Source: a virus (Duplodnaviria > Heunggongvirae > Uroviricota > Caudoviricetes). Taken from it: a stretch of 18,128 nucleotides of DNA. Position 1 is the stretch's first letter; every line of letters starts with the position of its first letter. Where the stretch lies: the IMG/VR virus record IMGVR_UViG_2814123389_000006, positions 64,001 through 82,128 of that record; one strand, given 5' to 3'. Shown here piece by piece: positions 13,674-17,742 of this stretch. Made by a program: the position numbers and the translations under genes. Under the pieces are notes generated by a model, which ran no database searches, was not told where the DNA came from, and was given only the letters and a program-made list of their open reading frames with translations.

Positions 13674-14128
13674 CGGCGCCGGGACCGGTCGTCAACATCG
13701 ACGACTGGTACGACCTCGCGGCGGTTGGGTTCCTGACGGTCGGTGGTTGGGTGACTACCCTCATCACGGTGTGGTGGGGGCAGCGTCGCCATAACGACAA
13801 CGTCACCGACGTGAAAAAGGACGTGACCGAGGTCAAGGGTGACCTGGGTGCAATTCGCACCCAGGTGGAGAACAGCCACCAGACCAACCTCCGCGACGAC
13901 ATCGACAGGCTCGCCCGGTTGATCGAAAGCAACACCCAGACAACCGAGTTGGTGTCTCGCCAACTCGGCGAGGTCAAGCAGCACGTCATCACTCACGGCA
14001 AAGACATCGGCGGTCTGCGCGATGAAGTGGGCGACGTCCGTGGTGAGATGAGGCAGGAGCGGCGCAACCGGGAGAAGGACAACGAGGAGTTGCGGCGCAA
14101 GATCGACGGTCTCGCGCAGCAGCAGTAG
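13670..14128 (+). CDS. Lysis-cassette membrane protein, DUF2746-like (one TM + coiled coil), 152 aa
   Basis: GTGA overlap with the holin. N-terminal TM helix, NSHQTNLRDDID motif, heptad-rich C-terminus. Confidence 0.75.
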   Translation: MTAPGPVVNIDDWYDLAAVGFLTVGGWVTTLITVWWGQRRHNDNVTDVKKDVTEVKGDLGAIRTQVENSHQTNLRDDIDRLARLIESNTQTTELVSRQLGEVKQHVITHGKDIGGLRDEVGDVRGEMRQERRNREKDNEELRRKIDGLAQQQ

Positions 14129-14142
14129 TTCAGAGCGAAACG

Positions 14143-14177
14143 AATCGCCCCCTGGCCTTCGGGCCGGGGGGCGATTT
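14143..14177 (+). terminator. Intrinsic terminator closing the late/lysis operon
   Basis: 15-bp stem AATCGCCCCCTGGCC / GGCCGGGGGGCGATT with a C(UUCG)G tetraloop, 14 nt after the stop codon. Confidence 0.85.
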
Positions 14178-14267
14178 CCCATTGGTGGCGAACACTCGAA
14201 AGGTCTGCATGTCGGCATATTTTGGTGAAGATGTGACGAAATCGGCAGGGGCGCAACGTTATTCGAG

Positions 14268-14276
14268 TGTTAGGAT
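14268..14276 (+). promoter_or_regulatory. Candidate extended -10 promoter (TGT-TAGGAT) for the 14328-15516 operon
   Basis: Fits TGN-TANNNT in an AT-enriched intergenic gap after the terminator. No clear -35. Overlapped by one arm of a perfect 10-bp inverted repeat. Confidence 0.5.
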
Positions 14277-14327
14277 GCGAGGAACGGGGCAGGCAAGGGC
14301 CAGCCCAATCCCGAAGGGGGCAACCCG

Positions 14328-14717
14328 ATGGTGTTGTGCATGGCGAGCAAGTATCCGTGGGGTGGCGTCCCACGCTGCACGCTCCCCGAAGGTCATGCCG
14401 GCGACGAGCATGTGGCGGAGGGACTCGTCGACTACCGGACGGGCAAAGCACCAGTGGTCGCCACCTGGTCGGTGTCCGCAGCGCCCGTAGCCGATGCCGG
14501 CGACGCCGCGCCGAGGATCAAATGGAAGCGGACCCGTCCAGGCCACTACATCGGAGCGATCGACCGCAAGGTTCGCTACGCGATGGCGAAAGTCAACGGC
14601 CGATGGATCGTAAGCACCCAACCAGGCGGTGTCGTGGTCGGCTCGGCGGCCCGAACCGAAGAGGCCAAAAGCGTTGCTGAAATCCACGTCAGCGAACCAA
14701 AAGGGGTGCTGTCATGA
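14328..14717 (+). CDS. Hypothetical protein with N-terminal C-x12-C-x5-H-x4-H motif, 129 aa
   Basis: GAAGGGGG RBS 7 nt upstream and an ATGA overlap with the next gene. Confidence 0.7.
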   Translation: MVLCMASKYPWGGVPRCTLPEGHAGDEHVAEGLVDYRTGKAPVVATWSVSAAPVADAGDAAPRIKWKRTRPGHYIGAIDRKVRYAMAKVNGRWIVSTQPGGVVVGSAARTEEAKSVAEIHVSEPKGVLS

Positions 14718-15094
14718 GTGGCATGGACGGCGCGAAGGCCGGAGCCCGGCGTGCCGCTTACCAGAAGATCCGGCACGACTGCGCCTGCGGTCGGGTGTTG
14801 CGCGGCAACCTCGCCACGTCGCATCTGCGGGCGTGCGAGACCAACCTGCGGGAGAGCGGCTGGCCACTCGACGCGGGGATGAAAGAGGTTCTACTGAAGG
14901 AGTGCGGCGGCCGCCGACAGGCGCCGACCTACGCCCACATCGTGCGTGCGGTCGAGCGTGGCCTGGGGAAGATTTACCTGGAACGCCGGCAGCGGGGAGA
15001 CAAGACTCCGTTGCCCTGGATCGAGTACCGCGACGAGGTCTGGCGGCTCGCCGACGCCGCGGTGGTCAACCCCGCGGCCGGCGCCAGCTCGTGA
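14714..15094 (+). CDS. Basic hypothetical protein with C-x-C-x11-H-x3-C motif, 126 aa
   Basis: AAAGGGG RBS; coupled by ATGA upstream and a possible GTGA downstream. Confidence 0.7.
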   Translation: MSGMDGAKAGARRAAYQKIRHDCACGRVLRGNLATSHLRACETNLRESGWPLDAGMKEVLLKECGGRRQAPTYAHIVRAVERGLGKIYLERRQRGDKTPLPWIEYRDEVWRLADAAVVNPAAGASS

Positions 15095-15147
15095 ACAGGC
15101 ACATGTGCGAGGATGGCTCGCTGCCGGAGCAAGATGGAGAGCTATTC

Positions 15148-15516
15148 GTGACGCCTGCCGAGTTGCGCTGCCTGCGCGAGTTCCTGGGCCTGACAACCGC
15201 GTGGCTGGCCGATCGCCTTGGGATCCGGGAGCGGCGCCTCCAGCGGATGGAGGCCGGCGCAGAGCCCATCCCAGATGGCGTCGCCGCCGAGATCGACGAC
15301 CTCGCCGCGACAACCGCCGAGTACGTCGAGCAGCTGCTCAACGAGTTCGATGACACCGACGAAGCTGCAACGCTGATCACCTACCGGACCGACGCCGCGT
15401 TCAAGGCGTCAGGTGGATTGGGCAAGACGTTCCCCGCCTCATGGCACCGCGCCGTCGCGGCCCGGGTGGCCGAGCAGATCGACACACTAACGCTGGAGTA
15501 CTCGGCCGAGGGTTAG
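15148..15516 (+). CDS. XRE-HTH regulator, Aca2/YdiL (DUF1870)-like, 122 aa (alternative start GTG 15091, 141 aa)
   Basis: MTPAELRCLREFLGLTTAWLADRLGIRERRLQRMEAGAEPIPDGV HTH, followed by LITYRTD and FPASWHRAVAARVA, which I recognise as the actinobacterial DUF1870-type C-terminus. GGAGAG RBS at 15136-15141. Confidence 0.75.
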   Translation: MTPAELRCLREFLGLTTAWLADRLGIRERRLQRMEAGAEPIPDGVAAEIDDLAATTAEYVEQLLNEFDDTDEAATLITYRTDAAFKASGGLGKTFPASWHRAVAARVAEQIDTLTLEYSAEG

Positions 15517-15983
15517 CCGAAGCTCAGGAGCTGGACCGAGATGCCGGTGAGATAGAACGCCGCATCGCCGCGATCCAGTGTGATGGTCGTCTGGTGACTT
15601 GCGAGCGACCCGTCCTGATCGATCGTCGAGGACGTCGCCTCCCCGGATCGGCTGTCGATACCTACCACCCCGGAGGCGATCACGTTGTCGTGGCCGTCCG
15701 GGCCGCAGGGGACGCTGCTGCACCGAGCCCAGAGCCCACTGGTGGCGTTCGGCTGGAGGGTGACCCTGTACGTGCCCGCAGGGATCGGCTGCAGGCCGTG
15801 CGCCGGTTCGTCGCCCACTGCGAACGTGCCAGGTCCTCCGTACCGATCGCCGACGGCGACCTTGGCCGGCGCCTGGGTGGTTGCCGACGACACTGCCTCA
15901 GTGGTCGAACCGCTGCATCCGACTGTCGTCAGGAACGCGACGGCAGCACCAGCAGCGAGCATCGAGCGGACCGCGGTAGTCAT
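15513..15983 (-). CDS. Predicted lipoprotein, 156 aa
   Basis: Signal peptide with lipobox TVG-C, Ser/Thr/Ala linker, then GPGTFAVG...PAGTYRV and a Cys pair. Stop codon overlaps that of the convergent HTH gene. Confidence 0.75.
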   Translation of the reverse strand: MTTAVRSMLAAGAAVAFLTTVGCSGSTTEAVSSATTQAPAKVAVGDRYGGPGTFAVGDEPAHGLQPIPAGTYRVTLQPNATSGLWARCSSVPCGPDGHDNVIASGVVGIDSRSGEATSSTIDQDGSLASHQTTITLDRGDAAFYLTGISVQLLSFG

Positions 15984-16037: not shown

Positions 16038-16313
16038 TTACCCGCCGCTGGCTGGGTGGGCGTCGGAGGGCCCGGTGGTGTCGCCGCGGTGGTCCTCGGC
16101 GATTCGGGTGGCGAGGTTCTCGATGGCTTCGTCGGTGAGGTAGTGGCGCGCGGCACGCCGACTGATCCCCATCAGTTCGGCCAAGGTGTCAAGATGTTCG
16201 GACACCATGTCAGTGGCGACTTGCTCTGTAACGGTCAGTCCGTGGCAGGCCAGGTTGGCAAGCAGTACGGATGAGCGCTGTGCAAGCCACTGGGATCTGC
16301 GACGAAGAGACAT
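16038..16313 (-). CDS. Hypothetical protein, 91 aa, homologous to the gene at 17895-18128
   Basis: Visible alignment with the 17895-18128 protein (RSQW/RSPW, HGL, H, R..AR, TD, A..IA). GAGGAAGG upstream. Confidence 0.7.
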   Translation of the reverse strand: MSLRRRSQWLAQRSSVLLANLACHGLTVTEQVATDMVSEHLDTLAELMGISRRAARHYLTDEAIENLATRIAEDHRGDTTGPSDAHPASGG

Positions 16314-16372: not shown

Positions 16373-17470
16373 TTAGATATTTGCTACATTGCCGTCTGCG
16401 TTGACTAGTTCCACCGTAACGCCGTGCATGGGCGGCGTCGCATGTTGGCGAGAATCGTCCGAAGAACTGCCTGCCCCGAACACGGAGGTAAGCACCGTGG
16501 CCGTGATAGCCGCCGCGACCGACGCCACCACCCCGCCTCCGCGCCGCGGTGGCGTCGGGGCTGCCGCGGCCAGCATGGCGGCGCGCATCTCCTCGTCGTC
16601 GACCGCGGTGTAGATCTGCGTGGTGGCGATGCTGGAGTGGCCCAGCAGTTCCTGGACAGCCCGAATGTTGCGCGTGCCGCGGTACGCGCGGGTGGCGAAT
16701 CGGTGCCGCAGCGTATGCATCGTCCAGTGCTCCGGCAGCGCCTCGGAGATCAGCGTTCCGACCCAACGCGGCGAAAGGTGCCCGTTGTCATCGCCTGGGA
16801 ACAGCCAGCCCTCGACCCCGTAAGCGGCGAGCTCGGGCGTGTGGCCCGGGGCGCCTGCAGCGATGAGGTCTGCGAGCTCGCAACTGATCGGGACGACGCG
16901 TTCCCGGCAGCCCTTGCCGTGGACGAGAAGCTGCGGCCCGTCGAAACCCTCGATGAGATCTCGGGTGTGGACCTTGGCGACCTCGGATCGCCGGAGGCCG
17001 GCCTCCGCCGCCAGGCGCAGCATGAGCGCAGTTCGAGGCTCTGCGGCGAGGATCGCCTCGGCCCAGACGCGATCGGGGGCTGGTCGCGGCGTGGGACGGT
17101 CCGCCTTGATGAGAGGCAAGCTGGCGGCGGGGTTCGTCTCGAGGTGTCCCTCGGTGTGCGCCCAACTGAAGAAGCTGGACGCGCTGTTGCGATAACCGCG
17201 GCGTGTCTCTCGTGCCCAGTGTTTCTGCGTGGCGAACCAGTTCTTGAGCGTGTCACCCGACACGTCGGCCGGGTCGGTTCGTAGCGCTCGAGCGATTCGC
17301 GATATGTGCGAGACGCGCGTGCTGATGGTGGTTTCTGGGCGGTCGACGGCCTGCTCGGCCGTGATGTAGCAGTCGATCAACGACTGCCAGGCGGGGGGCG
17401 CCGGCCACTTGTCTGGACCGGAACGCCGCTTGAACTGGATCACAATGGCGGAATCTAACGGACGAGTCAT
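16373..17470 (-). CDS. int: Tyrosine integrase (core-binding + catalytic domains, no evident arm-binding domain) with a C-terminal extension, 365 aa
   Basis: Catalytic set R (GLRRSEV), K (HGKG), HxxR (HTLRHR), H (LLGH) and Y (TQIYT). Only about 25 aa precede the core-binding domain, as in BPs/Brujita-type arm-less integrases. Adjacent to the att core. Confidence 0.95.
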   Translation of the reverse strand: MTRPLDSAIVIQFKRRSGPDKWPAPPAWQSLIDCYITAEQAVDRPETTISTRVSHISRIARALRTDPADVSGDTLKNWFATQKHWARETRRGYRNSASSFFSWAHTEGHLETNPAASLPLIKADRPTPRPAPDRVWAEAILAAEPRTALMLRLAAEAGLRRSEVAKVHTRDLIEGFDGPQLLVHGKGCRERVVPISCELADLIAAGAPGHTPELAAYGVEGWLFPGDDNGHLSPRWVGTLISEALPEHWTMHTLRHRFATRAYRGTRNIRAVQELLGHSSIATTQIYTAVDDEEMRAAMLAAAAPTPPRRGGGVVASVAAAITATVLTSVFGAGSSSDDSRQHATPPMHGVTVELVNADGNVANI

Positions 17471-17566: not shown

Positions 17567-17737
17567 CTAAGCGGCTTCACGTTGCGGGTCCGGGGATTCC
17601 GGAGCGTGCGGAAGGGGTGCCAGCGGGGCTGTCGGCAGGGGAATGACCTTGGCCGGCGTAGCGTCGGAATCGACGCAGGTCAAGTGGCGTGAGCCGACTG
17701 ACCAGAAGGTTAGGGGTTCGAATCCCTTCGGGCGCAC
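17567..17737 (-). pseudogene. Orphaned 3' end of the immunity repressor gene (56 codons, ends EAA-stop, ssrA-like degron), separated from its 5' part by integration
   Basis: Translates as VRPKGFEPLTFWSVGSRHLTCVDSDATPAKVIPLPTAPLAPLPHAPESPDPQREAA-stop. Starts exactly in the att core and is closed upstream by TAG at 17759-17761. Confidence 0.75.
17703..17737 (+). other. attR common core = 3' half of tRNA-Arg(ACG), not an intact tRNA
   Basis: CAGAAGGTTAGGGGTTCGAATCCCTTCGGGCGCAC contains a T-arm (AGGGG-TTCGAAT-CCCTT) and the acceptor 3' strand CGGGCGC, matching the actinobacterial tRNA-Arg(ACG) 3' end as I recall it. The 5' half (GCGCCCGTAGCTCA...) is absent. Confidence 0.85.
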
Positions 17738-17742
17738 TCCGG

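Follow-up and report, generated by a model that had tools for sequence, protein, structure and literature searches.

A probable Aca2-type operon with a leader-based switch in a mycobacterial prophage

A short cassette in the 18,128-nt stretch of DNA analysed here (the window, which is the final 18 kb of the 82,128-bp provirus record IMGVR_UViG_2814123389_000006) is probably an accessory operon that is governed by an Aca2-type regulator through a leader-based switch and carried by a Mycolicibacterium prophage. The source is likely a prophage of a fast-growing mycobacterium, with Mycolicibacterium the likely host genus. The cassette consists of a terminator, an extended -10 element, an RNA leader, two small genes that we call orfA and orfB, and the gene of the Aca2-type regulator, which comes last. 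What carries this reading is the anatomy of the cassette, the family of its regulator, the conservation, covariation and strand specificity of the leader, and the co-occurrence of the leader with Aca2-like genes.

A sequence-only reading of the same DNA had proposed an insulated operon in which two small counter-defence genes are followed by an Aca2-like regulator. The regulatory half of that proposal is well supported by the comparisons below, while the half that concerns the function of the two small genes is not. The same reading knew of no characterised Aca2-marked operon in mycobacteriophages and none was found in the literature; Aca2 operons with an actinobacterial leader have, however, been published (PMC13551039) and are thus already known. 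New here are a mycobacterial variant of the leader stem, its multi-copy use in cultivable phages of cluster Y, and two orphan protein families with Cys/His motifs.

Family assignment of the regulator gene

The regulator gene lies on the plus strand and ends at 15516, with an ATG at 15103 (137 aa) or a GTG at 15148 (122 aa) as its start. A likeness to Aca2, a helix-turn-helix (HTH) domain followed by a DUF1870-like part, had been proposed in the sequence-only reading. That proposal was right because the protein matched the Pfam family PF08965 (Aca2_YdiL, DUF1870) at 29.5 bits against a gathering cut-off of 23.8, the Aca2 structure 7ezy in a phmmer search of the PDB (E = 2.9e-5, regulator residues 2-113 against 2-114), and homologues that themselves mostly carry PF08965. 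The PF08965 alignment covers profile positions 5-115 of 118, HTH_31 was also matched, and three more Aca2 chains in the PDB match the HTH half of the regulator. A word-indexed search collected 291 homologues; those with a named source come, among others, from Streptomyces, Lentzea, Nocardia, Streptosporangium, Micromonospora, Cellulomonas and Rhodococcus. Among phages, the homologues of Bipper and Typha are 47% identical to the regulator, that of Gilgamesh 40% and those of the Corndog group 34%. These matches identify the product of the last gene as a true Aca2/YdiL-family protein.

The two candidate starts were weighed by comparison with related loci, namely the prophage L004, which is the closest relative, and L007, L009 and L063. 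The GTG at 15148 is preceded by the Shine-Dalgarno sequence GGAGAG, and a start there would leave a 53-nt regulatory spacer, which is unusually conserved against L004. However, the 15-residue N-terminal extension that results from the upstream start (MCEDGSLP..) is kept in all four loci with synonymous changes. Conservation at the protein level in L007, L009 and L063 disfavours the spacer, and the ATG at 15103 is favoured because the extension is conserved as protein.

In Bipper, the homologous gene 48 (L001:3357-3878) encodes a protein, gp48, in which an N-terminal CxxC..CxxC zinc ribbon precedes the Aca2 domain. This architecture is MqsA-like, and gp48 is annotated as 'Antitoxin' in the record.

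A conserved hairpin in the leader that points to an RNA element

The leader contains two hairpins on the plus strand. Hairpin 1 (14287-14306) is 20 nt long and folds as GGGC-A-GGC, loop AAGG and GCC-A-GCCC, that is, the lower stem has 4 bp and the upper stem 3 bp, the two are separated by an A.A mismatch, and the loop has 4 nt. Hairpin 2 (14310-14320, CCC-GAA-GGG) overlaps the Shine-Dalgarno sequence GAAGGGGG, 7 nt before the ATG of orfA at 14328. Hairpin 1 was first seen when the intergenic gaps of relatives were compared, and its copies were gathered by a pattern search over all fetched DNA, which yielded 33 distinct copies. All 33 lie on the sense strand of the following gene at a median of 21 nt 5' of the start codon; most are found 7-10 nt 3' of a -10 box, and some lie between genes without a promoter.

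RNAalifold returned the same 7 pairs for the 33 copies with 0 broken, five of the seven having been fixed by the search pattern. Covariation was observed at two pairs, with G-C replaced by U-A in 6 of 33 copies at one and C-G by U-A in 8 of 33 at the other, and it is real evidence because the pattern left those two pairs unfixed. Across Mycobacterium, Nocardia and IMG/VR records, 13 columns of the hairpin alignment do not vary. The A.A mismatch, present in 33/33 copies, breaks the palindromic symmetry; this, the strict orientation on the sense strand and the occurrence of copies within operons favour hairpin 1 as an RNA element over a double-stranded DNA operator.

A covariance model, R1, was built from hairpin copies and scores the window hairpin, which is part of its training set, at 48 bits. 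Nearly all 33 leaders are predicted to form a hairpin 2 with a C-run, a purine loop and a G-run (mean z -1.4; -1.7 in the set that we call Streptomyces-type). A search of positions 13900-15600 against Rfam 15, at E up to 10, gave no match.

Leaders co-occur with Aca2-like genes

The 33 copies include those of the window, L004 and L063, a second one in the window's own prophage, seven in L007, five in L009, six in Bipper (before genes 42, 43, 44, 45, 46 and 49), four in Typha and several from Nocardia-type and uncultured records. R1 was then applied to loci whose selection rested on protein similarity alone. Matches were found in about 40 of these, from Streptomyces, Nocardia, Amycolatopsis and Cellulomonas, on the plus strand and 300-1250 nt upstream of the Aca2-like gene. 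R1 had no match in the controls (Sbash, IdentityCrisis and loci with only the orfB family, famB), nor in the remaining 64 kb of the window's own genome apart from the second copy of the hairpin. Leader and Aca2-like genes therefore co-occur, though the link is not absolute.

The loci picked by protein similarity share a layout of a -35 box CTTGCG, the perfect palindrome CTTCCTAAATTAGGAAG, a -10 box, the hairpins and an ATG. In the Streptomyces-type loci hairpin 1 reads GGTC-A-GGGG / CCCC-A-GACC, the same design as in the window, and hairpin 2 reads CCGG-AAGGAn-CCGG with the Shine-Dalgarno sequence in its loop. The module of promoter, palindrome and leader is very uniform in L025, L029, L031 and about 30 other loci of this type, and the genes behind it often encode an HTH_17 protein, a paralogue of the Aca2-like protein, the Aca2-like protein itself and a multi-HTH or Ros/MucR protein (250-480 aa) whose gene is translationally coupled.

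The second copy in the window's own prophage lies at contig positions 41863-41882 (L020:1863-1882), 22 kb before the window, and its stem and loop are identical. It fronts an open reading frame of 74 aa (L020:1904-2128) behind a promoter that differs (TTGCAC..TATGCT). A hairpin with an identical loop before this 74-aa frame implies that two units or more are probably under the control of the regulator, and suggests a two-unit regulon in this prophage. With a single Aca2-like protein each, Bipper and Typha carry 10 and 13 leader copies, respectively. In either phage the copies are grouped in two clusters, at record positions 33,020-36,975 and 66,919-71,370 in Bipper and 33,245-38,037 and 63,195-69,063 in Typha, which correspond to the middle of the genome, from lysis to integrase, and to its right end. 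Most of the central copies in both phages have near-identical promoters (GTCTAGTGAGCTATAAC).

An insulated unit with its own promoter and a possible DNA operator

The sequence-only reading had described the unit as insulated by a strong terminator, and this description held. An intrinsic-terminator-like hairpin lies at 14143-14176 on the plus strand, with a 15-16 bp G+C stem followed by TTTCC, a folding energy of -34.6 kcal/mol and a z of -4.5 against shuffled sequences. In L004 its stem is preserved by matching single-base deletions in both arms. The hairpin closes the lysis/late operon and insulates the cassette.

The promoter that had been proposed for the cassette is borne out by an extended -10 element, TGtTAGGAT (14268-14276, plus strand), which has the counterpart TGcTAGTAT in L004, though a generic sigma-70 scan did not detect it. 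It precedes the leader hairpin by 10 nt, and a like arrangement is found in at least 20 related promoters.

The perfect 10-bp inverted repeat noted in the sequence-only reading also exists. Its left arm, AACACTCGAA (14191-14200, plus strand), is a possible but uncertain distal operator half-site, and its right arm (14262-14271) follows after 61 nt. The right arm overlaps the extended -10 in a promoter-proximal site, TTCGAGTG with the -10 (14262-14276, plus strand), that is kept in L004; the left arm is not conserved in this closest relative. For that reason the repeat was rejected as a conserved operator, and it is a possible DNA operator in the window. The repeat core, CACTCGA / TCGAGTG, resembles the half-sites CACTAGAC / GTCTAGTG of relatives' promoters, which flank or abut the -10 in L007, L009, L063 and Bipper. 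The order TC(T/G)AGTG and then TAnnnT is common to the promoters of Bipper, Typha, L007, L009 and L063, and in the relatives palindromes are clearly seen between the -35 and the -10.

Proposed switch and its likeness to characterised Aca2 systems

We propose that transcription would start about 7-10 nt 3' of the extended -10, so that the mRNA would open with the bulged hairpin at 14287-14306, followed by the small hairpin that contains the ribosome-binding site. Once accumulated, a dimer of the regulator would bind the leader and probably also the TCGAGTG site of the promoter, and orfA and orfB would thus be expressed in a burst that is then stopped. The same regulator probably governs the second unit with the 74-aa frame 22 kb upstream. 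Binding, repression and timing are what we infer by analogy with characterised Aca2, which uses a promoter DNA motif, a transcription start 10-15 nt downstream of it and two hairpins in the 5' untranslated region (5'-UTR) that block the ribosome-binding site (PMC13551039).

The acrIF8-aca2 operon of Pectobacterium phage ZF40, with the Aca2 family (structures 7ezy, 7b5j, 7vjo), resembles the cassette in that its regulator belongs to the same Pfam family and comes last in a short operon behind small genes, and in that a two-hairpin leader follows the transcription start with the second hairpin at the ribosome-binding site. It differs in that the window regulator is only about 25-30% identical, the cargo of the window is unrelated to any anti-CRISPR (Acr) protein, no conserved palindrome overlapping its promoter was seen and its likely host genus rarely has CRISPR-Cas. 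Also close are the operons with an 'actino-motif' (Feussner et al. 2026; PMC13551039), for which multiple marked operons per element and intergenic motifs were described. They share with the present material actinobacterial Aca2-like genes, a DNA repeat at the promoter, 5'-UTR hairpins, several leader-marked operons in one element and motifs inside operons, whereas the stem is GGGCAGGC..GCCAGCCC in the mycobacterial variant and GGTCAGGGG..CCCCAGACC in the Streptomyces-type one.

In the cluster Y phage Bipper, and also in Typha, the counterpart is formed by genes 46-47-48, in which two small coupled genes of unknown function are followed by the Aca2-like gene (47%), just upstream of the integrase and with the same hairpin in front. 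In contrast to the window, gp46 and gp47 bear no relation to orfA and orfB, gp48 has the extra zinc ribbon, and the leader is present in 10 copies.

Several observations weigh against the proposed switch. Among IMG/VR records picked by the motif itself and with a strong R1 match, only 2 of 5 encode a recognisable Aca2-like protein. One of the others, L139 (G002, 65,401 bp, with direct terminal repeats and estimated to be 100% complete), has a leader of 45 bits and no detectable Aca2-like gene; conversely, R1 has no match in Corndog and Gilgamesh, both of which have Aca2-like genes. The free evidence for pairing in hairpin 1 comes down to the two covarying pairs. The leader of the window as a whole has a z of only -1.1, so that the support for hairpin 2 is modest, and no palindromic DNA operator conserved between the window and L004 was seen. 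Lastly, we infer that the leader is the published actino-motif by comparing it with the verbal description of that motif.

The three motif-picked records without an Aca2-like gene, one of them estimated to be complete, would suit a general mRNA element, such as a 5'-end stabiliser or processing site joined to a translation-tuning hairpin, that is read by a host factor and accompanies Aca2-like genes through shared ancestry. Such an element would also fit a hairpin that begins a few nucleotides past the predicted 5' end of the transcript, the several copies between genes without a promoter, and the two stem variants that L007 has alongside a single Aca2-like gene. We consider it unlikely. The sequence, and not the pairing alone, is invariant at the 13 columns and recurs in a diverged form in the Streptomyces-type loci; the co-occurrence is consistent in strand and position across about 40 protein-selected loci and missing from the controls; and characterised Aca2 binds just such a pair of 5'-UTR hairpins (PMC13551039). 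The invariant hairpin sequence and the recurring Streptomyces-type design thus suggest a specific reader, for which the Aca2-type regulator is our probable candidate.

The cargo genes orfA and orfB encode two orphan families

The two small translationally coupled genes recognised in the sequence-only reading are orfA (famA; 14328-14717, plus strand, 129 aa) and orfB (famB; 14714-15094, plus strand, 126 aa), which overlap by an ATGA. Both show a coding pattern in their G+C content at third codon positions. Compared with L004, the ratio of nonsynonymous to synonymous substitution rates (dN/dS) is 0.13 for orfA and 0.17 for orfB, and because the differences are mostly at third codon positions and these ratios, low as they are, indicate purifying selection, we take both to be real genes.

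OrfA has the invariant residues C4, C17, H23 and H28 and the N-terminal motifs YPWGG, AEG and TG. In its AlphaFold2 model the predicted local distance difference test (pLDDT) score is 67 overall, and residues 61-122 form a five-strand beta-meander and a helix at pLDDT 80-90. A search of 5.8 billion proteins returned one close relative, and an exhaustive HMMER search with an orfA profile added two real small relatives; matches of the profile to a 3701-aa cadherin-like protein and to a 769-aa low-complexity protein were judged spurious. BLAST in the fetched contexts found orfA copies in L007 (60%), L009 (59%), L063 (44%) and L064 (40%). The relatives of orfA are restricted to mycobacterial prophage contigs, and no locus of the family was found across GTDB genomes and IMG/VR.

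OrfB carries an invariant zinc-knuckle-like motif, C23-x-C25...H37-x3-C41, and is otherwise helical in its AlphaFold2 model (pLDDT 67). It has five clusters among the 5.8 billion proteins, and orfB-like genes occur also without an Aca2-like gene or leader nearby.

Neither protein matched a family, a defence system or a toxin in Pfam, PHROGs, NCBIfam and PADLOC, a tblastn search of 50,697 phage records gave no match, and Foldseek found no match for either AlphaFold2 model in the PDB at E <= 0.001. OrfA matched only unnamed small proteins among the AlphaFold Database clusters. In the ESM Atlas, orfA had no usable feature match and the matches of orfB were sub-threshold (0.80-0.81); structural neighbours were weak and came from low-confidence models. 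No relatedness to Acr proteins was found via Pfam, PHROG, PDB folds and tblastn, which are general libraries and not a dedicated Acr database. On their sequences, orfA and orfB constitute two new orphan families with Cys/His motifs.

Gene neighbourhoods of the Aca2-like genes

The window and L004 share the gene order [A][B][Aca2], where A and B are the orfA- and orfB-like genes. The order is [144][A][73][102][Aca2][56][110][ParB_N][TAGT-like glycosyltransferase][integrase] in L007, [169][A][B][168][73][73][102][Aca2] in L009 and [102][A][112][Aca2][93][ParB_N][TAGT-like] in L063. The variable small genes upstream of the regulator that the sequence-only reading anticipated were found in part: the 1 to 5 genes that separate the orfA-like from the Aca2-like gene vary, and the orfA-like gene is itself fixed, since it lies upstream of the Aca2-like gene in 4 of 4 contexts long enough to tell. 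In 41 IMG/VR loci with an Aca2-like gene, the surrounding 5 kb contained neither an orfA-like nor an orfB-like gene.

At the wider Aca2-like loci, a paralogous HTH gene lies directly upstream in 17 of 37, while downstream a coupled multi-HTH or Ros/MucR gene is present in many. The Streptomyces-type operons led by the leader hold mostly regulators (HTH_17, an Aca2-like paralogue, multi-HTH or Ros/MucR). One leader of Bipper stands before a gene whose annotation is that of a ribonuclease toxin. In L007 (6699-8741) and L063 (3435-4929) a leader-led operon adjoining the Aca2-like gene consists of a ParB_N gene and a gene similar to TET-associated glycosyltransferase (TAGT; PF20691, E = 1.7e-14), and these two genes are candidates for DNA hypermodification.

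Possible functions of the cargo

Aca2-type regulators and their leaders serve as flags for unknown anti-defence genes, and this flag, including the RNA leader, exists both in mycobacterial prophages and in the cultivable Mycobacterium smegmatis phages Bipper and Typha. Its use for guilt by association is limited, as the genes behind the same switch in actinobacteria comprise regulators, DNA-modification genes, one gene annotated as a toxin and many unknowns; the presence of the switch alone does not identify an anti-CRISPR. The claim of the sequence-only reading that orfA and orfB are counter-defence proteins was left unsupported, as neither is similar to a family or fold known from Acr, anti-defence, defence or toxin proteins. 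Counter-defence is nonetheless the leading single guess for their function, a tentative and unproven one. The readings of the cargo discussed below are nested within or overlap the reading of the operon given above, and their probabilities do not add up to one.

In the wider form of that claim, orfA, orfB or both would act against a mycobacterial defence system other than CRISPR, in an early burst that the Aca2-like protein shuts off. The regulator family with its leader is a published marker of anti-defence operons (PMC13551039), both genes are small, orphan and restricted to prophage contigs, and the leader-led ParB_N and TAGT-like genes of L007 and L063 would represent counter-defence of the DNA-modification type. 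We nevertheless regard this form as rather doubtful. Apart from the missing homology or fold match to a known anti-defence protein, only 35 of 1223 Aca2-like genes (3%) sit with known acr genes (PMC9410906), the Streptomyces-type operons carry mostly further regulators, the leader in Bipper fronts the toxin-annotated gene as well, the orfA-like gene behaves as a conserved companion rather than as fast-turnover cargo, and related phages carry prophage defence or toxin-antitoxin genes in the same slot.

This slot follows lysin A, lysin B and the holin and precedes the integrase, and the cassette, with its own promoter, occupies it in synteny with Sbash and IdentityCrisis, whose holin genes are 81-83% identical in DNA to that of the window. 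Sbash has there genes 30/31, which are expressed in the lysogen and act in prophage-mediated defence (PMC6426596), and IdentityCrisis has HicAB. The cassette could accordingly be a lysogen-expressed moron, for prophage-mediated defence or exclusion or of a toxin-antitoxin-like kind, with the HTH protein as autoregulator or antitoxin and orfA as its fixed partner. Its own promoter and its insulation from the late operon would suit such a role, as would the orfA-like gene found upstream in every informative context and the 'Antitoxin' annotation and MqsA-like zinc ribbon of Bipper gp48. Aca2 is structurally like MqsA (PMC9410906), the regulator shares with MqsA/HigA-type antitoxins an XRE-type HTH plus an extra domain, and models of MqsA- and HipB-type antitoxins match its HTH, weakly and with scores far below their cut-offs. 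Even so, we find a moron unlikely. The regulator has no recognisable toxin partner, given that orfA and orfB match no defence or toxin family (PADLOC, Pfam, NCBIfam); 1 to 5 unrelated genes between the orfA-like and the Aca2-like gene would be unusual for a toxin-antitoxin pair; and the orfA-like gene is absent within 5 kb in all 41 IMG/VR Aca2-like loci. Sbash gp30/gp31 and other central morons are alike in the slot between lysis and integrase and in having their own rightward promoter, whereas there is no sequence similarity to gp30/gp31, and in the Sbash region both an Aca2-like gene and the leader are missing.

We hold an anti-CRISPR function of orfA and orfB to be very unlikely. The architecture resembles that of acrIF8-aca2, small genes and then Aca2, with autoregulatory features, but neither gene has Acr homology and a survey of 141 Mycobacteriaceae genomes found CRISPR-Cas in only two Mycolicibacterium species (PMC7820667).

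Returning to the Aca2-type operon, a bolder extension, which we think improbable on present comparisons, is that orfA and orfB found two new families of mycobacteriophage counter-defence proteins directed at non-CRISPR systems, and that the leader and the Aca2-like protein mark a whole regulon. If this were true, the GGGCAGGC..GCCAGCCC leader would mark units in Bipper (10), Typha (13) and the present prophage (2), and would serve as a sequence tag in searches for anti-defence genes of actinobacteriophages.

Prophage setting and flanking genes

The 82-kb provirus is bounded by a 36-bp exact direct repeat, an att repeat with copies at contig 2-37 and window 17703-17738. The repeat resembles the 3' end of a tRNA (GGTTCGAATCC T-arm); a search for a whole tRNA in the window found none. 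A tyrosine integrase gene (16373-17470, minus strand) lies next to the att copy in the window. On the 5' side, the cassette is preceded by tail genes, lysin genes and a holin/DUF2746-type gene that ends at 14128.

On the 3' side, the unit is closed by a convergent lipoprotein-like gene (15513-15983, minus strand, 156 aa). Its product has a signal peptide and a lipobox (..LTTVGCSG..), and the homologue in L004 matches Pfam Rv1352. The next gene (16038-16313, minus strand) encodes a 91-aa protein of unknown function. Both genes are kept in L004, where they likewise lie between the cassette and the integrase.

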